Source of the DNA: a virus | Lineage: Duplodnaviria > Heunggongvirae > Uroviricota > Caudoviricetes | IMG/VR virus record: IMGVR_UViG_3300028048_000122 | Length of the DNA: 64,000 nt | Strand: one strand, 5' to 3' | Part shown: positions 11,456 to 21,692 of the stretch, piece after piece | How positions within the stretch are numbered: the stretch's first letter is position 1 | How the letters are laid out: each line of letters begins with the position of its first letter | Program-made: the position numbers and the translations under genes | The notes under the pieces: model-generated | Database searches by the model: none | Told to the model about the DNA's origin: nothing | Seen by the model: only the letters and a program-made list of their open reading frames with translations

Positions 11456-11498
11456 TTAAGAGTATATATTGACTTTAAGATACTCTTAATATATAATA
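11456..11498 (+). promoter_or_regulatory. consensus sigma70 promoter TTGACT-17-TATAAT inside 10-bp inverted repeat TTAAGAGTAT/ATACTCTTAA
   Basis: -35 at 11469-11474, -10 at 11492-11497; it faces the 1.1 kb ORF-free region and the tRNA array. Confidence 0.6.
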
Positions 11499-12636
11499 AA
11501 GTCATCAGGTAAAAAGACTCATGATAAGGGTAAAACATTGAAGGCTCCTTTCAGCGGGCGTGATGCAGACGCGTCCGCTATCATCTGGGCTCAAAGGTGA
11601 AAGTCTTAAGAGCTCGGCATTTTATCACACCTCCTCAATTATTTCTCTACATTTCTCTTTTTATCGCGATCATTTCACTGGTCGTATTCCTCCATCTGGT
11701 TCCCGGACAAGACACAAAACTGTCTAATTCATAATGACCTCCGACCAGCTTTCGGGCTGGTTGATACTTGAAAGAGCTTGTATCAAAACCTTGTTACCCC
11801 CTTGGCATAGATACTGGTGTACTCCTTTCTGATTTTGTTTGTGGTGATTGGCTCCTTTTCATTTTACCTCTCACTCTTTCAGGTATCAACGAACCCGAAA
11901 CATGGGTTCCATGGTGATTTGCCTTTCTTTCTAAGGCCAGCTTCTAGGCTGGCTGATATTCACGATAACTATAATAATCATGGATATCAGCGACCCTAGA
12001 GGTCGAAAAAATTTAACAAACAGAAAACTATGGCAAAGCATACCTCGGTTATAAAACGCAATATCATGCGTCCGAGAATGGCCCCGTAATTGATACTAAC
12101 AAACTGCAGTAGATATGCCTGCAGTGAGTATGTCCTCTCTTAGTGATAAAAGCGGGCGGCACGTAAAGTGTAAACGCGCGTATCTTGAGGTCATGTGCAT
12201 GCAATGCCGAGCATTAAAGCAGGAACTGACAGGGTTCCATAAGTGCGTGAATGCAATTGGTGCATTCCTCCGCCGCCAGTTAAGGCTCAAGGCCTGATAA
12301 ACCTTGAGATACACGAGGTATTTATCGAGATGAAACTTTGCTGTGATGTCCTCAAAAAGGACTATAACTGTCAGTCGCCGTACAAGTAGCCCAAGGCAAT
12401 GATACAGATCAGTATGCAGCTTTATAGCAATCTATAATTCTGAATGACGGGTGAAAGTTGAGGGTCACAATCCCTTTGGAGCTAGAAAGAGGCAAGAAGC
12501 GCGTGTCGACGGGCGCGTTGCTCAGACTTGTCTTCTCCGTGGCTGAATAAATGCAGAGCATCAAGTTGTGTATAGGGAAACCTGATGTTTTGCCGTAGTT
12601 TTGTGTTTGTTAATAACACAGGTGAACTAACTATTT

Positions 12637-12729
12637 GGAGTTGTGGCTGAGAGGCTGAAAGCGGCGCCCCGCTAAGGCGTTATACCCCGCTATAGGGTAT
12701 CGTTGGTTCGAATCCAACCAACTCCGCCA
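12637..12729 (+). tRNA. tRNA-Ser (anticodon GCU), type II, CCA encoded
   Basis: Acceptor GGAGTTG/CAACTCC, 3-bp D stem, anticodon stem GCGCC/GGCGT, loop CCGCTAA (C at position 33 is unusual), long variable arm, T arm GTTGGTTCGAATCCAAC. Confidence 0.7.
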
Positions 12730-12733
12730 TGAT

Positions 12734-12809
12734 GTACCTTTGGCGTAATTGGTAACACGGCAGTCTCCAAAACTGTAAGATGTTGGTTCGAGTCCAGCAG
12801 GGTATGCCA
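12734..12809 (+). tRNA. tRNA-Trp (anticodon CCA), CCA encoded
   Basis: Folded by hand; all positions fit standard 76-nt numbering (U8, A14, G18G19, U33, CCA, A37, T54T55C56). Confidence 0.85.
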
Positions 12810-12813
12810 TTAT

Positions 12814-12888
12814 GTTGATGTAGCTCAATGGGGATAGAGCACCGAAACTGTAACTTCGGAGACTCAGGTTCAAGTCCTGACATCGGCT
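12814..12888 (+). tRNA. atypical tRNA, Tyr-like anticodon loop aCTGTAAc (GUA) with 8-nt loop, type I body
   Basis: Acceptor GTTGATG/CATCGGC (2 G-U pairs), D arm GCTC-AATGGGGATA-GAGC, stem CCGAA/TTCGG encloses 8 nt, T arm TCAGG-TTCAAGT-CCTGA. Confidence 0.5.
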
Positions 12889-12997
12889 TAGCTAATTTAG
12901 TCTGACTGGTCTGATCAGCCGGTTAGGCGAAACACTACTGTAGTGGCCCTAAAGGGCGTGCTCGAAATCCCGAAGTACGTAAAATATGTCGGGATGT

Positions 12998-13072
12998 GGT
13001 TCCGTAGTATAGTGGTCAGTATATCGGCTTGTCACGCCGAGGACACGAGTTCAATTCTCGTCGGAACCGCCA
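12998..13072 (+). tRNA. tRNA-Asp (anticodon GUC), CCA encoded
   Basis: Acceptor GGTTCCG/CGGAACC; loop TTGTCAC; T loop TTCAATT. Confidence 0.85.
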
Positions 13073-13199
13073 TCATGTCCCAGTATCAGGCTAACGTCTG
13101 ATCAGAGGCATACATTTTTCAGGGCGCCCACCGCAGCGCGGCACCACCGTTAATTACACGCCTAATGCCAAATGCGGTTAACTTGAATAATTCCCTGTA

Positions 13200-13475
13200 A
13201 AGGGATTAGATATAGTTGTTGACTCAGACGGTCGGCAACAAAACGGTCACTATCCGGCCGCTCCGTTAACTAAAATCCGTCAGCTACCGGAGGGAAATAC
13301 GATAGGTCCTGAGTAAGACCGAACTGCTCGCTTCTAATGTCCTTCTCCCAGGCTAACGTCTGGTAGGGGATACAAAAACAATCCGGTCACCGTCCGGCCA
13401 CTTATATCGGCTCACAACGGCCCTGATATAAGGGAAACAAGACGGATCCTGGGTACGATATAACTGCCCACGCCC
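13200..13475. repeat. degenerate tandem duplication (~140 bp units) in non-coding DNA
   Basis: Units near 13255-13330 and 13393-13470 share CCGGCC...GGGAAA-ACA..GG-CCTG-GTA-GA...AACTGC...CTAATG; the motif CAGGCTAACGTCTG also occurs twice (13087, 13339). Confidence 0.4.
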
Positions 13476-13479
13476 TAAT

Positions 13480-13555
13480 GGTGCTCATCGTCTAATGGTT
13501 AGGACAGCAGTTTGTGGCACTGCTAATCCCGGTTCGACTCCGGGTGATCACCCCA
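13480..13555 (+). tRNA. tRNA-His (anticodon GUG) with encoded G-1, CCA encoded
   Basis: Extra 5' G pairing with discriminator C; anticodon stem GCAGT/ACTGC, loop TTGTGGC; T arm CCCGG-TTCGACT-CCGGG. Confidence 0.8.
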
Positions 13556-14855: not shown

Positions 14856-15243
14856 TTAATCTTCTCGCGTGACCTGACTGTTAGTTGCCAAGAGAACTAC
14901 ACAGCGAATAAAGATATACAGTGAAATATCAAGTAACTGATTGCAGTGAATGTCAAGTAACTGTATAGCCTCGGAGAGCCCCGAAAGAAACTTGGCCTGT
15001 GGCATCTCCAAAGGACACCGTAAACGCTAAAATGAATTACGGTATCATCCGGCCCTAGAGGACAAGCCGGATAAACGGAAATCGCCCCGGTTAAGTGCGA
15101 GGCTAAAATGACTTCATGTCTTCGGGCATGGTCACTGGACAAGGAAAAGTCTTTAAAACCTCTCACGGCTTTGGATGAGCGATAGATAAAAATCCAGACC
15201 ATCCTAAGGCGGTAGGATGTAAAATAAAGCCGCCCTCGATAAT

Positions 15244-15324
15244 GAGGCAGTAGCTCAAATGGCAGAGCAGACGGGAAAGCAAATGGGGCTTTCTTATGAT
15301 GGTGGTTCGACTCCTCCCTGCCTC
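15244..15324 (+). ncRNA. tRNA-like element with non-canonical anticodon arm
   Basis: Perfect acceptor GAGGCAG/CTGCCTC, normal D arm GCTC-AAATGGCA-GAGC, T arm GGTGG-TTCGACT-CCTCC. The anticodon arm is replaced by an 8-bp hairpin GGGAAAGC-AAATGGG-GCTTTCTT. Confidence 0.3.
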
Positions 15325-15429
15325 CCCTATATAATGCTCATAGTCTGGGGAACACCGGCCGGTAGACAGGTTCGATTCCTGTAATGAGCGCATGTTTCCC
15401 GATATCAAAGAATCGGGCACCAATGGCTA

Positions 15430-16235
15430 CGGGTGCGTATAAGTAGATAGCCAGCTTGAGTCACCGTGGACACTGGATGCCCCTATGTGTAGGAGCATGC
15501 CAGCTTTGCCCGAAGAAGGGGCGCGATCCACGACACAAAAGCTTTCCTTGCGGTGATAGGTTAACCGAAATAAGGGTCTCCATTAACCCTGGCATAGCGC
15601 CAAAAGAGATGACCATTATCGAAGCTTTCACTACCGTCTAACTGGGGAAGTAAGAACTGGATGGCCACGGTTTTTAGCACCCAGCAATAGACGATGTGAC
15701 AGCATTCCTTTCGGTGAAAGGTAAACCGAAAACCAACATTAAACCTGGTCCGCCCCGATAACGCCGTGACGTACAAACGGTAGCTCGGTAAAGTGGTAGC
15801 AAGGTTGCGCCAAGCGTACCTGGATTACTTTTATCTGGATAAACTAAAGTACACGGTTTATCAACTTAAGGATAATAACAGGCACGAAGGTGATTTAGCC
15901 TCCAAGGCGAAAAACGGCGTAGGTTAAGGGCACTACGTAATAAGCCGCCCGAGTCGGAAAAGCCGACATTAAACCTGCATAAGATATCTGCTTGTTATGG
16001 GGATAGAGCAGAGAAACCGGTGGCTACGGCATTAATCCGGTAAACGTCAAAGACATGTAGGGCTCCCCTGCGGGGTGAGTAAGGTACTTGACGGCCGCAA
16101 AAAGACTTTTAGACATCTCAAAGCGAGAACTCGGTCATGAAGACTAACCCATCTTCAAATTCTCCAGATGCTGCTTATCTTTTCGGGCATCAAAAATATG
16201 GTCTTGGCGAATATAATGTAATAGAAAGGTCAATA
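15430..16235 (+). ncRNA. candidate large structured ncRNA (ORF-free ~0.8 kb inside tRNA island)
   Basis: No ORF above 60 aa on the + strand; internal recurring motif CCGAAA...ACATTAAACCTG occurs three times; many local helices; context inside a phage tRNA array. Confidence 0.25.
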
Positions 16236-16239
16236 GTTT

Positions 16240-16536
16240 ATGACGGTTTTAGATGCTCCGTCTACTGTCGAAGTAGATAGAAAAATGCTTTATTGCCTGG
16301 CAAGACGCTTTCAGTCGCTTGAGGCAACAGCAGGCAAGGAAAATTCCCCATTTATGGGATGTGCATGGTGCAAGCTAACTAATGGGGACGAAAAAAAGAA
16401 CTGCATTCATTTCACGAAAGGTGTGGAGTTTTATAAATATTTTAGGGAACTCACTGGAGTGAATCTGTCTATTATTGCGCCAGAAGGCAACAAAATGGAT
16501 AAAGAAGTTGAAATCGGCGAAAAAACCTGGTATTAA
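16240..16536 (+). CDS. hypothetical protein (98 aa)
   Basis: ORF with AGAAAGG RBS. Confidence 0.45.
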   Translation: MTVLDAPSTVEVDRKMLYCLARRFQSLEATAGKENSPFMGCAWCKLTNGDEKKNCIHFTKGVEFYKYFRELTGVNLSIIAPEGNKMDKEVEIGEKTWY

Positions 16537-17119
16537 AGTCTATTATATCATATTCGCCAAGACTAGGCAGGACGACTAGTTATCGTCAATTGCCGTGCCG
16601 CCTTACGAAGCGAGTAGCGCCATGATTCTCTACGGGGGCTTGGCGCGGGCGACAAACATTCAGACCTTGTAAGCGAAGGCAGAAGGGACGCCTTCAATCA
16701 AATCGGTGAAGCTTACTCCTAGTAATGGCCATTTGGCAAAGCTCGGTGGAAAATCCGACAAGGTGCTGCTAATGCTTCGGGCACTAATTAATCACATAAC
16801 TGCTTGTTATAAGCGCGTGTATGACTACCGTGGAGGGGCTGCGCGTGATGGGAGAGGCTCTGCCCGATAGTGGCCAAAAGGTTCAACTACCGTGAGTCCC
16901 ACGGAGAAACAATAAGCCCTGTACCTTATGAAAACAGGCAAAGTGCTGCTTTATGAGAGTTGTTCGGGCACTAAAAACCTGCACTGGCAACTTCATCATC
17001 TTTCAATGCCAGTAAAAGCGTTTGATAACGTTCATCAGCCATTTCGGCTGATTAAGATAAATCTACTAAAAGATAGGTTTGTTTTAATGAACCGATATGG
17101 AAAGAAAGGAAGGGCGGCA

Positions 17120-17680
17120 ATGCCACAAAAAGTTAAATTGTATCTTCTTGGCGGTACTGCTGTCATGGATTTAGTATATTCAGCAACATCTCCTGTTATT
17201 CAAGTGTACTTTATAAGCTTAATAAGTTCCAGCGTTTTAGCGGCGGCCAACATTCTGACGACTGCTTTAGCTGCAGGAGTTAATGCATCTATCCAGTCTG
17301 ATAGACTTAAGGATTTCTACAGACGTCATTTTCTCGGGATAATCGTAATAGATATTGTCTGTTTTGCACTTATTAATTTCGAAGGAATTTCTATTCCTGA
17401 AGTAAGATTTCTCGGTCTAGCGATATTAAATGCGGTATCTTCTACGTTATGGTTTACTGTAGTAACTGATGCTATTAACCATCAGATTGAAGGCGACAAG
17501 TTAACGAAATGGAATAGCTTATCTAAAACAGTTAATCTTACGGCGGCACTTATCGGCAGTGTAATCGCGATAGTATTCACTACGCATATCGGTGTAGAGT
17601 TCTGCATCGCGGCACAGTGCCTAGCGAACTTATTTATGGGCGCAACCGACTGGCTGGCATATAAAAGAATACGATACTAA
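17120..17680 (+). CDS. polytopic membrane protein
   Basis: ATG 17120 after AAAGGAAGG; at least 5 hydrophobic helices. Confidence 0.5.
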   Translation: MPQKVKLYLLGGTAVMDLVYSATSPVIQVYFISLISSSVLAAANILTTALAAGVNASIQSDRLKDFYRRHFLGIIVIDIVCFALINFEGISIPEVRFLGLAILNAVSSTLWFTVVTDAINHQIEGDKLTKWNSLSKTVNLTAALIGSVIAIVFTTHIGVEFCIAAQCLANLFMGATDWLAYKRIRY

Positions 17681-17862: not shown

Positions 17863-18061
17863 GAAAAACAAGATAGTTAGTCTCCAAGACTATAAAGAAG
17901 AGAACAGCCCGCATGAAGTAGCCGAAGTAATCTGCCTGCATTGTATGAATCGTTGGATATCTGTACATGAACAAGGAGAATGGCTTGCTAATTGGGAATG
18001 TCCTAAATGCGGTAAAGCGGGCGGCATTATATATACGGGGCAGCCATTGCCGGAGGAATAA
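17846..18061 (+). CDS. small Zn-ribbon protein (CLHC...CPKCGK)
   Basis: Two CxxC pairs. Confidence 0.45.
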   Translation: MCGIGKKNKIVSLQDYKEENSPHEVAEVICLHCMNRWISVHEQGEWLANWECPKCGKAGGIIYTGQPLPEE

Positions 18062-18243
18062 TGGAATTCAAATTAAACTCAAAGCTCGAAGAATGGGTAA
18101 AAGAACATAATAAAATCTGTCATTCAAATGCTTCAGCCGGCGAACATTATCAGTTTGAGTTCCTGCCGACAGGCATTATGGAAATCCAGACCGTAAAATG
18201 CCTTTGCTGCGGAGAAGAAAGGACAGAATACGATGGTTGGTGA
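18061..18243 (+). CDS. hypothetical small protein
   Basis: ORF overlapping prior stop (TAATG). Confidence 0.4.
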   Translation: MEFKLNSKLEEWVKEHNKICHSNASAGEHYQFEFLPTGIMEIQTVKCLCCGEERTEYDGW

Positions 18244-18466
18244 ATGGGCGCAAAAGTTAACAAAAGAACAAGTCATTAAACATATTCAAGACGGCATAAA
18301 AAAAGCGCATAAAGCATTTTTGGCTCAACAAGCTATCCGTTCAATGAATAAATCCCATAGAAGGCGCCGGCAGATAGCAAAAGCTTACAAGCTGATTTGC
18401 CCAACGGTAGAAATTTGGCTACCGTGCAAGATACATCAAGTTGCAACAACTATAAAATTGTCATAA
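18233..18466 (+). CDS. hypothetical basic protein
   Basis: ORF; weak signals. Confidence 0.3.
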   Translation: MVGEWAQKLTKEQVIKHIQDGIKKAHKAFLAQQAIRSMNKSHRRRRQIAKAYKLICPTVEIWLPCKIHQVATTIKLS

Positions 18467-19714
18467 CAATTGACAAGGAAAAGTCAGTAAAACCCATCAC
18501 AGCAGGAGTGTCTGTGAATACGTTGAGCTCGCACCCAGGAGTCAATAGCCGTGTTGAAGTCCGGCAACGTAGAGGCCAAACACTTAGTCATAATAGCAGT
18601 GGCAGCCCGCAAGGCAAGTGTACGGTGCAAGTCCGTACAGACATTGGCAAGAGAGCTCCAGAACCTGCAGTAAAGCAGCAAAAATCCTCCGCCCACGTTC
18701 GCAACAGGTAAAGGGCGTAAAAGATGTAAACCTGTCCGGCCGAACGCAAAACCTGCCGATGTGCACTTAAGCAGGAAGGTTACTGCCGCCTTAAGAGAAG
18801 AAAAGTGACTCCATGGAGAACTCCCGTATGGTCCGTTCCGCTCCATGGTATAGCTATTGCGTTATGCTATGTAAAAAGTACGCACGTTCGGGCAAACGAA
18901 AGAACCCGCGTAAGGAACAACGAGAGAGATTCCTGTTTTCCCAGCGTTTTTGGTAGAAAAATGTTGCGCGCCTCTTGACCTGGCCAGTCAAGAAAAAGTC
19001 AGCGATATGACCAGGGGGTAATTGGCTTGAGCCCCCGTTATCATGGGAGAATAGACCTGGAATGGAGCCAGGACGGCATTTAGCGTCGTGCAGGGTACGC
19101 GCCCTCAGCGTAAGTTCAAATCTTACATCTCCCGCCTTCAAAATAAATTAAACAGGAGATAAATCGAATGTCTTATCCAGATTGGCTTGACGACGAGGAA
19201 GACAAGATTGACTTCTTTGTTTGATAAGGGGCCATCAGTAGTCCACTGCAAAGGACGAGTCTGTAGAATGATGGGTTGGCATCCTCCGTTTCGGGCGCTT
19301 CGTAAAAGTACCACGGGAGTTGCGGTAGAATTTGCAGCTACCGCAGAATTACTCCCGTAATTATCATGAGCACGAGGCCCAGAGGGCGATACCAAGCAAA
19401 AAGCTTGCAGTGCTCTTTCTATCATGTCCCTAATGAGGTTAACGTCTCGGCGGGGAGGAATCCGTTTTAGTTTATCCTGAGGAATAGGCAATGATGAGTG
19501 CGCACTTATCAGCTGAAACGAAGGGTAAATGAGAGCCCGTCGGCAACCGGGTGCGGAAATAGTATGCAGAGAACTATAACCTGCCGGAGACTCGATTGCC
19601 GTCATAGTTGTCGAGCGTAGAATACCACGTCAGGTGTATCGAAGGAGCTGGTAATCTCCTGACGTCAGCCAAAAACTTACCAGAGGCGGCACATGCCATG
19701 TCGTCTCGCCTTAC

Positions 19715-19789
19715 GGTTCCAAAGCTCAACGGTCGAGCAAACGCCTCATAAGCGTCAGGCTGAGGGTTCAAATCCCTCTGGAACCACCA
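19715..19789 (+). tRNA. tRNA-Met (anticodon CAU), CCA encoded
   Basis: Acceptor GGTTCCA/TGGAACC; D arm GCTC-AACGGTC-GAGC; loop CTCATAA; T arm GAGGG-TTCAAAT-CCCTC. Confidence 0.85.
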
Positions 19790-19992
19790 TAATGGAATAA
19801 GCGAGGTAAAAGTCTCGCGAATTCCTCTCTTTTCCTAAACACACATGAACAACTGCGCCCAGACAGTATAACAGCTGGGTAGTGTTTCGGTGTGCTGAGC
19901 ACGAAAGAAATTCAGCCTTCCACTTATGAGGGGTCGTTAAGAGGCGGGCGCATCGTCGTCGTAGGTTCGAACCCTACCGTCCCTCAACTCAT

Positions 19993-20062
19993 GTCAGCGT
20001 CGGCATAATGGTAATGCCAGGGCCGCAAGCCTGAAATGCGGGTTCGACTCCCGCCGCTGACC
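19993..20062 (+). ncRNA. tRNA-like element with truncated anticodon arm
   Basis: Perfect acceptor GTCAGCG/CGCTGAC, D arm GGCA-TAATGGTAA-TGCC and T arm GCGGG-TTCGACT-CCCGC, but only 19 nt between the D and T arms. Confidence 0.35.
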
Positions 20063-20215
20063 GTACGAGCCATATGGCGCGTCATTCTTTTCGAGGTTTT
20101 CAAGACTTAAACAAGAGAATCTTCGCAACATTATAGGCTTTGACTGGCGTCTGCTTTATGGCAGGAACACAGGGAGGCAAAGCTAGGGGCAGTTGGCAAC
20201 AGCTGCTCCGGTACT

Positions 20216-20297
20216 AGGGGTATCGCCAAGTGGCTAAAGGCACGGGACTTTGACTCCCGCATTCTTCGCGCTGGTTCGAATCCAGCTGCCCCTGCCA
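20216..20297 (+). tRNA. tRNA with anticodon UUG (Gln by anticodon) but type-II-like body, CCA encoded
   Basis: Acceptor AGGGGTA/TGCCCCT; 3-bp D stem with 11-nt loop; stem CGGGA/TCCCG; loop CTTTGAC; 10-nt variable region; T arm GCTGG-TTCGAAT-CCAGC. Confidence 0.55.
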
Positions 20298-20303
20298 TAT
20301 CAT

Positions 20304-20380
20304 GCGTCACTTAGCTCAACAGGCAGAGCCTACGGGTCTAGCTCGTAGAGATTCGGGTTCAAATCCCGAGGGACGCACCA
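20304..20380 (+). tRNA. putative amber-suppressor tRNA (anticodon CUA), CCA encoded
   Basis: Acceptor GCGTCAC/GGGACGC (one mismatch); D arm GCTC-AACAGGCA-GAGC; stem TACGG/TCGTA; loop GTCTAGC with U33 and centre CTA; T arm TCGGG-TTCAAAT-CCCGA. Confidence 0.5.
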
Positions 20381-20385
20381 TTATT

Positions 20386-20497
20386 ATGGGAAGCACCCAA
20401 GGTGGGTTGTAAGTGCCAAAGCAGGTTCGACTCCTGCCACCTCGTAAGAGGTTTGAGGAAAACAGCGGCCCGGTTCGATTCCGGGGCTTCCCGCTTT
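20386..20497 (+). ncRNA. composite tRNA-like element (two T-arm hairpins inside perfect GGGAAGC/GCTTCCC stem)
   Basis: Hairpins GCAGG-TTCGACT-CCTGC and CCCGG-TTCGATT-CCGGG; CCAAGGTGGG motif. Confidence 0.3.
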
Positions 20498-20907
20498 AAA
20501 ACTACCGTAGGGACTACGGAAAGTTACGCCTGTGGAGAGAGTGTAAGACGGATATATTCCAGTTCTCGACGAATCAGGAAGCTCACGCCTCTATAGGCGG
20601 GGGTAGTTCACCATGAAGCTGATGTATTGGTGTCAGTTTGTCTGGTGTGATAACGACACGAGATAAACTATATGGCCATATATTGGCACCGGCAAAAGCT
20701 CAAAACAAAAGTAAGTAGCCGGGGCAAGACCAGGACACCTCCTGGATTTTATTATGTACATCGAGGTTATTATGCATATGCTAATTATCCGAAAAGTTAG
20801 GTGTGGCTTCCGACTCGATGCGGCGAAGAGAGGGTAAAAGGCATAGTGAAGATATCTACAAAGGGCAACCGCGTAAGCGAGCTCCCCGCGAACCGGATAT
20901 CTATCAT

Positions 20908-20982
20908 GGCTTGGTAGTCTAGTGGTTAGGCGACGGTCTGCAAAACCGTTTTACGCCGGTTCGATTCCGGCCCAAGCCTCCA
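20908..20982 (+). tRNA. tRNA-Cys (anticodon GCA), CCA encoded
   Basis: Acceptor GGCTTGG/CCAAGCC; stem ACGGT/ACCGT; loop CTGCAAA; T arm GCCGG-TTCGATT-CCGGC. Confidence 0.85.
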
Positions 20983-20994
20983 TATCATGGGAAA

Positions 20995-21105
20995 CGCCAT
21001 GGTGGCGGAAAAGAGCATTCGGGTTCGATTCCCGACGCCCTGCGGGGTCCGTGGTGGTCAGCCTGGTTCGAGTCCAGGGTTTCCCTCGTTAATCATTTAG
21101 CCGTA
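20995..21105 (+). ncRNA. two tandem tRNA-like minihelices (GGTGG motif + T-arm hairpin)
   Basis: CCATGGTGGCG...TCGGG-TTCGATT-CCCGA and CCGTGGTGGTCA..CCTGG-TTCGAGT-CCAGG; no D/anticodon arms. Confidence 0.3.
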
Positions 21106-21556
21106 GTAATTCTGCGTATGTGAACCTTCCGATACAGCGCCTTAAACGCTCGGAAGCACGGGCTCACAACCCGTGGCAGCTAATATCCTCTGGTTTAAGC
21201 AGAGAACCGGCGTCAGCGAACTACTTTGCATGCGAGAGTTCATTAAGCTGACGAAAAATGGTAGCGGCGGCGAAGTCCTTGCGGTGGATGAGTAGCCAAG
21301 GAGTTCCTATATTGGACAGTAAGAGCGGGTTCGATTCCCGACACGTCGGCAGGCGTCCTGGTGGTAATAAGTGCTGGTGCGCGCAGACTTCAATTCTAGA
21401 TACGAAGTCTGTGCAATTCCAGCAGCTCCATGTGCGTAAACACATAAAAAGAAGCTGATAACCGTGGCGTCAGTTTTCCCTGGCCCGATGGGGACAATAA
21501 TATCATCGGGTTTTGCCGTAGGTGAGGGCGGATACTCATCGTTCACGGGCTATTAT

Positions 21557-21646
21557 GGAGATGTACCCAAGTGGTTTAAGGGGACTGCTTTGAAAGCAGA
21601 TAGGCCGCAGTGATGCGGTGCGCGGGTTCGAATCCTGCCATCTCCT
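21557..21646 (+). tRNA. tRNA-Ser (anticodon UGA), type II
   Basis: Acceptor GGAGATG/CATCTCC; 3-bp D stem CCC/GGG; loop TTTGAAA; variable-arm hairpin CCGCA-GTGA-TGCGG; T arm GCGGG-TTCGAAT-CCTGC; no CCA. Confidence 0.75.
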
Positions 21647-21692
21647 CTCTGTCACGACAAACGCCTTGACGTGGCGACAGAGCTTTTTACCA
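21647..21692 (+). terminator. hairpin + T-run after the tRNA array
   Basis: TCTGTCACG...CGTGGCGACAGAG followed by GCTTTTTACC. Confidence 0.4.

Follow-up and report, generated by a model that had tools for sequence, protein, structure and literature searches.

What occupies the part of a phage tRNA array in which no gene can be recognized? The question is raised by a 64,000-nt stretch of DNA from a virus of the Caudoviricetes (IMG/VR record IMGVR_UViG_3300028048_000122), here called the window, in whose coordinates all positions are given. The window covers a phage replication region, with genes for gyrase A and B, ClpX, an SPFH protein, UvsX, helicases, a ligase, a primase and the anaerobic NrdD. 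Between tRNA clusters at 12637-13555 and 19715-21647 lies a segment of about 0.8 kb (15430-16235), for which an initial annotation had proposed a large structured non-coding RNA (ncRNA) of the GOLLD or ROOL class. The structured RNA is borne out: it occurs in seven variants, covaries above both shuffled and coding controls, and protein coding is rejected. We consider it quite likely that positions 15452-16191 of the + strand represent a previously undescribed family of large (~680-880 nt), highly structured phage ncRNA.

The RNA is represented by seven distinct variants of 681-884 nt that are 71-95% identical in pairwise comparisons and are found on 16 metagenomic contigs (numbered with the prefix L) besides the window. 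Each contig carries one copy, and no paralogues are present in the window or in the relative loci. All variants start with CAGCTTGAGTCACCGTGGAC and finish with CTTATCYTTTCGGGYATY, and the unit was therefore placed at 15452-16191, 740 nt on the + strand. These ends, obtained from the alignment of the homologues, are slightly inside the 15430-16235 segment.

As the initial annotation had stated, the segment is free of substantial open reading frames (ORFs). The longest ORF over it has 61 aa on the + strand (15456-15641, TTG start) and 71 aa on the - strand. Most indels are not multiples of three; compared with the window, each of the five more diverged variants contains 10-16 of this kind, and substitutions are spread evenly across the three codon positions, with no 3-periodicity. 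We also read TAG, TGA or TAA as sense, and none of these reassignments opens a long + strand frame in the segment. Because the indels break the frame, 3-periodicity is absent and stop reassignment yields no frame, protein coding of 15452-16191 is excluded. The same observations bear on the idea that proteins are encoded through an alternative start or genetic code, which the initial annotation had raised as a way in which the RNA could prove spurious. Two tRNAs, tRNA(CUA) at 20304-20380 and tRNA(UUA) at 19045-19136, hint at stop-codon readthrough somewhere in the phage. The long genes of the window are nevertheless intact with the standard code and mostly TAA-terminated (19 TAA, 7 TGA and 2 TAG stops), the indels are frame-breaking and the substitutions phase-even, which leaves this explanation with next to no probability.

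The many local hairpins noticed at the outset are reflected in the predicted fold of the single sequence. The minimum free energy (MFE) of the + strand is -260 kcal/mol, with z = -3.2 relative to dinucleotide shuffles, compared with z = -2.25 for the - strand. The GC content of the segment is 0.46-0.50, versus 0.33-0.40 in the upstream region of small ORFs. An RNAalifold consensus on the seven-sequence alignment (A5) contains 199 pairs in 32 helices, and 97.2% of the cells are standard pairs. In 32 pairs, both sides have changed while pairing is retained, versus 1-5 in slid controls, in which the 3' partners are shifted by 1-3 columns.

Covariation derived from RNAalifold was dropped as evidence in its own right, as two coding genes also showed 9-12% of "covarying" pairs. 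Folding from the alignment itself exaggerates covariation, and three further controls were therefore added. When the MFE structure predicted from just the window sequence was mapped onto A5, 27 pairs covaried, versus 1-9 in slid controls, and 91.3% of the cells were paired. With single-sequence structures, the ratio of compensatory to compensatory plus disruptive changes was 0.28 for the new RNA and 0.26 for the ROOL RNA of the window, versus 0.09-0.11 for two coding genes. Finally, alignments were column-shuffled, with the gap pattern and variability class of each column preserved, and refolded. The + strand of the new RNA reached an energy z of -11.9 (-163.2 vs -97.6±5.5), with 33 covarying pairs vs 6.5±2.9 in the shuffles (maximum 12). 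The - strand gave an energy z of -5.3 and 32 vs 7.8±2.6 covarying pairs. The coding controls, two neighbouring genes for a 186-aa protein (z -3.0; 16 vs 13.8) and for the SPFH protein (z -2.6; 18 vs 14.4), showed no excess of covariation, and ROOL, a positive control with 3 sequences (z -5.7; 17 vs 3.8), resembled the new RNA. That a real structured RNA is present on the + strand is virtually certain.

The strand is indicated by three observations. The + strand fold contains 78 G-U cells, transferring the structure to the - strand in mirror image leaves 99 cells broken vs 34, and the energy z favours the + strand. The + strand is thus the functional strand. These data also address a DNA-level element, such as a replication origin, a packaging site or a recombination hotspot, whose inverted repeats would be selected in DNA. 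The segment is indeed intergenic and hairpin-rich, and recurrent hairpins described below mark deletion and insertion boundaries. However, G-U pairs are tolerated on the + strand only, the energy signal falls from -11.9 to -5.3 on the opposite strand, and at a GC content of 0.46-0.50 the segment has neither an AT-rich unwinding region nor iterons. We regard a DNA element as highly improbable.

Is the RNA a member of a known family? We scanned the whole window with the Rfam 15 models at gathering thresholds and positions 15200-16400 permissively, at E ≤ 10. At gathering thresholds, 15430-16235 has no match; the whole-window scan returns one full-length ROOL and 12 tRNA matches. Apart from a tRNA-like gene at 15244-15325, the permissive scan of 15200-16400 yields just two matches, both at chance level: isrN (E = 1.6) and a 17-nt T-arm of beta-tmRNA (E = 0.99). 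The L096 copy shows only two chance-level microRNA matches at E ≤ 10 (E = 4.8 and 6.2). The ROOL model (RF03087) does not match 15200-16400 or the L096 copy even at E ≤ 10, and the GOLLD model matches neither at gathering score (window and three relatives) nor at E ≤ 10 (window and L096 copies). The segment is likewise unmatched by the Rfam 15 models for transfer-messenger RNA (tmRNA), RNase P, group I/II introns, HEARO, OLE, raiA and other ribozymes, and in the permissive scan by the riboswitch and T-box models. Comparison of the segment with the ROOL of the window by nhmmer and blastn detects no similarity. By the curated models, the segment is therefore not GOLLD, ROOL, HEARO, OLE, an intron, RNase P or tmRNA. 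Of the combined outcome that would have spoken against an RNA, no Rfam hit and no covariation, only the first half was found: there is no Rfam match, yet covariation is abundant. The family is very likely new.

The proposed GOLLD/ROOL assignment therefore stands for the genomic context, a tRNA array with a ROOL RNA 2.8 kb upstream, and fails for the segment itself, which matches neither model. GOLLD reportedly goes back to Weinberg et al. 2009. GOLLD and ROOL are large ncRNAs of phages and prophages located near tRNA islands; they form RNA-only nanocages and their function is unknown (PMC12286853). ROOL is a large (~580 nt), ornate RNA (PMC12286853), and the new RNA is likewise phage-encoded and close to tRNA clusters, a likeness of context and not proof of membership. 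Its covariation behaviour is also comparable to that of the window's ROOL. It differs from ROOL in its greater length (681-884 nt), in a modular build with a ~160-nt module that is duplicated or deleted, and in showing no similarity of sequence or model; the octameric cage of ROOL has been seen by cryo-EM. Many GOLLD RNAs exceed 800 nt, and their 3' region is universally conserved, the 5' region less so (PMC12286853). The new RNA resembles them in size, phage or prophage origin, tRNA adjacency and the presence of a variable and a conserved part. In what is a shallow sample of seven sequences, its pattern of conservation appears to differ from that of GOLLD: both ends are conserved, the 5' 90 nt being nearly invariant, and the middle varies. 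No tRNA is embedded in it. The structured-RNA candidates that Fremin et al. 2023 reported from IMG/VR measure 29-151 nt (PMC10690425). They share with the new RNA covariation in phage intergenic regions, and four IMG/VR contigs carry the new RNA, but none of the candidates is a unit of 700-900 nt. The literature searched contains no description of such an RNA. The new family falls within the loosely defined kind of large ornate ncRNAs of phage tRNA islands.

A highly divergent GOLLD or ROOL could in principle have been missed by the covariance models. The shared context (phage, tRNA island, 680-880 nt) and the less conserved 5' region of GOLLD would fit this explanation (PMC12286853). Against it, GOLLD and ROOL stay undetected at E ≤ 10 in the window and L096 copies and at gathering score in three relatives, the same scans recover genuine ROOL at 215-219 bits, and nhmmer and blastn see no similarity to the window's ROOL. 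We give it little credence.

The initial annotation had also suggested a ribozyme or an intron, and a mobile-element guide RNA (an omega-RNA or HEARO-like RNA) belongs to the same group of explanations. In their favour, L096 has a HEARO RNA with an IscB-like gene ~9 kb further downstream, and in other phages the 186-aa gene has TnpB genes in its vicinity. The segment, however, is matched by none of the intron, RNase P, HEARO or other ribozyme models, it interrupts no gene or tRNA, and genes for TnpB, IscB, reverse transcriptase or homing endonucleases are adjacent in 0/7 variants. A self-splicing intron, a known ribozyme or a guide RNA is thus very improbable; this counter-evidence leaves room for a wholly new ribozyme.

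The core RNA (15452-16191; 681-884 nt in relatives) has ends common to all seven variants and can be divided into a series of domains. Overall, an invariant 5' domain is followed by one to two copies of a ~160-nt repeat module with optional insertions, a central domain and a 3' domain that covaries densely and ends in a recurrent hairpin. The 5' domain (15453-15543; helices 1-4) is closed by helices between 15453-15470 and 15527-15543 and contains a hairpin at 15473-15503 and a small variable hairpin at 15508-15522. In the former, two pairs change in a compensatory manner in L091 and L123 (U-A to C-G and G-C to A-U), and in place of the loop L091 has an extra hairpin and L123 a GAAA loop. It is followed by repeat module A1 (15544-15623), with hairpins at 15573-15590 and 15608-15620. 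The loop of the first of these, CUCCAUUA, is invariant in every copy. In L096, L104, L116 and L123, module A1 contains a structured insertion of 68-70 nt after ...CCCTGGC (the 17-pair helix 8). The variable middle module (15624-15741) combines a long hairpin (15624-15703), whose loop at 15660-15667 contains GGCC, with a second hairpin at 15710-15730. Its helices 10-14 contain compensatory pairs. The middle module is missing in L116 and L117, and in L096 it is enlarged to a full second copy of module A.

The central domain (15742-15892) is formed by nested helices at 15742-15806 and 15808-15892 (helices 15-21). Here, 15763-15767/15777-15781 shows three covarying pairs (CCGU/ACGG, CUGC/GCAG and CCAU/AUGG) with a U-G intermediate. 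The variable linker (15893-15986), which in L096, L104 and L116 is replaced by a different sequence, contains AACCUGC at 15972-15978. This element is predicted to form long-range helix 5 with 15556-15562; its 7 pairs are 98% paired, with one-sided changes only. The 3' domain (15987-16191) consists of hairpins at 15987-16012, 16016-16041 (with an invariant stem), 16045-16093 (enclosing 16062-16080) and 16094-16188 (enclosing 16125-16164). Covariation is densest in its helices 24-32: helices 24 and 27 have 4 covarying pairs apiece, helices 31 and 32 have 2-3. The changes include CGUCAA/UUGACG to CGCCAA/UUGGCG, CACCGAU/AUCGGUG or GCUGAU/AUCGGC, as well as A-U to G-C in two variants in the helix 16094-16105/16178-16188.

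A motif beginning with CCGAAA had been noted three times in the segment. Exact copies of CATTAAMCCTG are present at 15581, 15737 and 15967, near the noted positions. CCGAAA precedes copies 1 and 2 only, copy 3 having CGGAAA. The short motif alone is not significant (3 found vs 2.2 expected in 64 kb with ≤1 mismatch). Copies 1 and 2 lie inside a 48-nt direct repeat, 75% identical with a spacing of 161, and the relatives show that this repeat is part of a duplicated module of ~160 nt. The copies differ in their role in the fold. Copy 1, in module A1, provides the loop and 3' strand of the module hairpin; copy 2, in the middle module, the 5' strand of the closing helix of the central domain; copy 3, in the linker, the 3' strand of the predicted long-range helix with 15556-15562. 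Two palindromes, GGCC at 15662-15665 and CGGCCG at 16091-16096, are conserved. They are only suggestive as a hint of oligomerization, and together with an invariant CUCC-containing loop we treat them as leads only.

Relatives of the RNA were reached by several routes. Exact-protein look-ups with ORF98, the gene directly downstream in the window, gave the near-identical contigs L082 and L083 and the ~91% relative L091, the one useful relative reached through ORF98 homologues. A two-part motif scan of Joint Genome Institute (JGI) metagenomes gave L095, and homologues of the 186-aa protein (17120-17680) led to the more distant copies in L096-L099, L104/L105 and L116/L117. A motif derived from the alignment then identified four IMG/VR jumbo-phage contigs, of which L124 is identical to L096 and L123, L125 and L127 constitute the seventh variant. 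IMG/VR queries for related loci with ORF98 and a 3D-domain protein found none. The 186-aa homologues P0012, P0018, P0023, P0026, P0027 and P0009 lie in gene-dense phage regions from which the new RNA is absent. Three motif scans returned chance matches only: CCGAAA..CATTAAMCCTG in IMG/VR (81 loci, three of them in a DnaJ-like gene), CGGTGNNAGGTNAACCGAAA in IMG/VR (three matches) and GGGTCTCCATTAMCCCTGG in GTDB genomes (two matches in unrelated metagenome-assembled genomes).

The longest contigs with the new RNA measure 147-327 kb. DNA comparison with GenBank phages turns up nothing that matches the segment, 12 kb of neighbouring genes or the ROOL. At the protein level, even the closest relatives share less than 30% identity; hence there is no cultured relative. 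As far as the searches reach, the RNA is specific to a clade of uncultured jumbo phages. L097 (327 kb) and L123 (207 kb), from the same JGI sample 3300023714, carry two variants that are 85% identical. Related phages with the new RNA co-exist in this sample. The study codes of the contigs (STEW19, GLEN20), the presence of NrdD and the name of ROOL, which refers to a rumen origin, suggest a rumen or gut habitat.

Directly 5' of the core, a two-hairpin leader (15392-15451, + strand) is present in all variants. It comprises hairpins at 15398-15418 and 15418-15436, followed by TATAAGTAGATAGC. The second hairpin covaries (GCACC/GGUGC, GCAUC/GAUGC, GCGUC/GGCGC, ACACC/GGUGU). An 88-aa ORF cassette in L091 and ~196 nt in L104 are inserted between leader and core, and the leader is therefore a separable element. 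The -10-like TATAAG of the leader was considered as a promoter and found to be unsupported, as it has no -35 box and is missing from the promoter scan, and the leader covaries as RNA.

Further upstream on the + strand are two tRNA-like elements. The first is a non-canonical, 82-nt tRNA-like gene (15244-15325) that scores 38.8 bits with the Rfam tRNA model. Its anticodon stem has 7 bp, the loop is atypical, and relaxed ARAGORN calls it tRNA-Pro(ggg) with a 9-nt insert. The second is a 57-nt mini element (~15336-15392) with acceptor and T arms only. Both are conserved in L096, L104 and L116, and a TATAAT-like hexamer lies directly 5' of each. In L083, a 232-nt tRNA-like stretch is swapped for 190 nt of unrelated sequence. 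The two elements are possible processing signals.

At its 3' end, the RNA closes with a terminal hairpin, GAUGCUGC...CGGGCAUC (16167-16191, + strand), which recurs at 16762-16785 and 16942-16972. The recurrent hairpin, RRYGCYGC-N-YCGGGYRYY, is found in three copies, on the + strand only, vs 0.09 expected, and the related motif TCGGGCAYYAA in 4 vs 0.18 expected. Its stem covaries between copies and genomes (GAUGC/GCAUC, GAUAC/GUAUC, AGCGC/GCGCU). L091 and L095 are devoid of 16787-16963, the stretch between hairpin copies 2 and 3. Because the copies recur, covary and bracket this deletion, the hairpin may act as a boundary at which RNA modules are processed or recombine.

Do these domains form one RNA? 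The alternative is a series of smaller adjacent structured elements, such as small RNAs, processing hairpins or degenerate tRNA-like units. Several observations weigh on its side. The supported helices are mostly local, and the two long-range helices that would tie the domains together (15556-15562/15972-15978 and 15591-15593/15944-15946) have no double compensatory change; for this reason, the unit could consist of several adjacent RNAs. Single-sequence MFE and consensus fold differ on the long-range pairs, whole modules are gained or lost among the relatives, and the remaining island is likewise a mosaic of structured blocks. Other points temper the main reading. A screen of the alignment for stacked, gap-free pairings outside the consensus fold found no convincing pseudoknot. 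The covariation counts include shared ancestry, the seven variants belonging to one phage clade. The TATAAG lacks a -35 box and the leader shows covariation at the RNA level, so that the 5' end is provisional, and transcription, ends and processing of the RNA are what we infer rather than observe. The idea of a GOLLD/ROOL-like multimeric scaffold, which we hold to be doubtful, draws on genomic context, there being no functional cue in the sequence.

On the other side, all domains occur together, in the same order, once per genome and with identical outer ends in 7/7 variants. Insertions in the relatives are located at the unit boundaries, those of ORFs or morons outside the unit ends only, and the internal changes are structured modules gained or lost. 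The domains at 15742-15892 and 15987-16191 are multi-helix folds above the typical size of small RNAs. We thus judge several separate elements to be unlikely and retain the reading of one large RNA, which is likely to be a stand-alone unit acting in trans.

A gene does begin shortly after the RNA. ORF98, which encodes a Cys-rich protein of 98 aa (16240-16536, + strand), starts 49 nt past the RNA end, as would be expected if the segment were a cis-regulatory leader (a long 5' untranslated region, riboswitch or attenuator). However, ORF98 comes with a ribosome-binding site and with a promoter-like sequence of its own, TATAATGTAATAGA (16212-16225), and the RNA, with 740 nt and ~30 helices, is far beyond known leaders and matches no riboswitch or T-box model. 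ORF98 is missing downstream of the RNA in L096, L104, L116 and L123, where another non-coding block and then tmRNA follow, so the RNA is not the leader of one particular gene. Conversely, ORF98 is found elsewhere without the RNA (P0002 contexts): a 78%-identical homologue on contigs L084-L090 lies in unrelated contexts beside an ISL3 transposase. A leader function is very improbable. ORF98 itself has the look of a moron, the kind of accessory cassette that brings its own promoter, and TATAATGTAATAGA also precedes the 88-aa cassette of L091. The predicted membrane protein of 186 aa (17120-17680, + strand) has 46-96% identical homologues in many unrelated phage contexts, some beside TnpB/IS605, and its gene appears to be a mobile accessory gene. 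A 250-aa ORF call from 16928 is probably too long; it overlaps a conserved RNA hairpin.

The new RNA is not the only structured element of the region. The initial annotation had named two further candidate stretches, and both have substance. The first, 11500-12630, holds a full-length ROOL RNA (RF03087) at 12020-12603 on the + strand (215.3 bits vs a gathering score of 99.1; model 1-574/574), 2.8 kb upstream of the new RNA. In the three genomes that cover the region (window, L096 and L116), ROOL is located 1.6-4.4 kb upstream on the same strand. A near-consensus sigma-70 promoter (11/12 positions, 11469-11497) lies ahead of the island, separated from ROOL by an ORF-free leader of ~520 nt. The second stretch, 18480-19714, has conserved structure and belongs to no Rfam family. 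It is part of a structured mosaic (18467-19714, + strand) of blocks 18467-18853, 19225-19368 and 19413-19714 with a suppressor-like tRNA and a micro-ORF.

ORF-free blocks of the + strand that are 75-90% conserved in the relatives are found at 14862-15165, 16620-17040, 18467-18853, 19225-19368, 19413-19714, 20607-20907 and 20985-21300. In column shuffles, energy z and covarying pairs were -5.3 and 19 vs 3.4 for 18467-18853, -6.9 and 12 vs 4.4 for 19413-19714, -6.2 and 6 vs 2.2 for 16620-17040, and -7.1 and 15 vs 3.4 for 20607-20907, a 3-5-fold excess of covariation; 14862-15165, 19225-19368 and 20985-21300 were assessed with slid controls only. None of the blocks matches a family at Rfam gathering score, and permissive scans of 16500-17200 and 18400-19800 return no family apart from a tRNA at 19715. 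They are candidates for additional new RNAs. Because the ORF-free blocks show a conserved structural signal, the region of ~11.5-21.7 kb is an RNA island in which annotation covers no more than ROOL and the tRNAs. All of its elements lie on the same strand. In relatives, the island also includes tmRNA, between the homologue of 16620-17040 and the 186-aa gene (L096 9217-9613, L104 2283-2684, L116 9392-9793); none is present in the window.

How might the RNA act? Transcription of the + strand would run within the ~10-kb island, through ROOL, tRNAs, suppressor-type tRNAs and other structured RNAs (and tmRNA in relatives), starting at the consensus promoter 11469-11497. Processing at the tRNA-like elements and hairpins on its flanks would free the new RNA, which would act in trans as a folded RNA and not as the leader of a particular gene. 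By analogy with GOLLD and ROOL, which share its context, it probably has a role in the takeover of translation or tRNA biology. It may possibly form a higher-order RNA scaffold; a decoy or regulator of translation is speculative. In its fullest form, a picture that we regard as decidedly tentative and rather improbable, the RNA would be one of several undescribed large RNAs in a ~10-kb, almost protein-free RNA island of jumbo phages with anaerobic, probably rumen hosts, and its own activity would be higher-order assembly like the GOLLD/ROOL cages, or that of a new ribozyme or a decoy against the host translation or tRNA machinery.

To our knowledge, conserved structured ncRNAs above ~400 nt are very few in bacteria and phages (rRNAs, RNase P, tmRNA, group I/II introns, OLE, GOLLD, ROOL, HEARO and raiA), and each one that we know of has proved biochemically remarkable. 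A third, unrelated large RNA in a GOLLD/ROOL-type locus, co-resident with ROOL, offers a natural comparison. It may help to reveal the purpose of phage RNA islands, for example translation takeover, tRNA protection or anti-defence. The module that is present zero, one or two times provides natural deletion variants for experiments, and ~10 kb of phage genome that is blank in current annotation is dense in conserved RNA structure.

Some smaller features of the island and its relatives are worth recording. In L096, a HEARO RNA (17967-18205) lies beside an RRXRR/HNH (IscB-like) gene. The tRNA(UUA) is an unannotated type-II tRNA of the + strand with a long variable arm, whose anticodon reads ochre UAA. 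It is detected by relaxed ARAGORN only and missed by Rfam, and it is conserved in L095, L096, L104 and L116 with three covarying pairs. The phage thus has two suppressor-type tRNAs (CUA and UUA), yet the window genes use standard stops. Directly after tRNA(UUA), an 18-codon micro-ORF (19168-19224, + strand), MSYPDWLDDEEDKIDFFV, with a GGAG ribosome-binding site, is conserved as a peptide in L095, L096 and L104. The tRNA at 12814-12888 (+ strand) is given an undetermined type by ARAGORN, with a two-base "anticodon (gt)"; since its Rfam score of 51.7 bits is that of a good tRNA despite this call, its anticodon loop is unusual.

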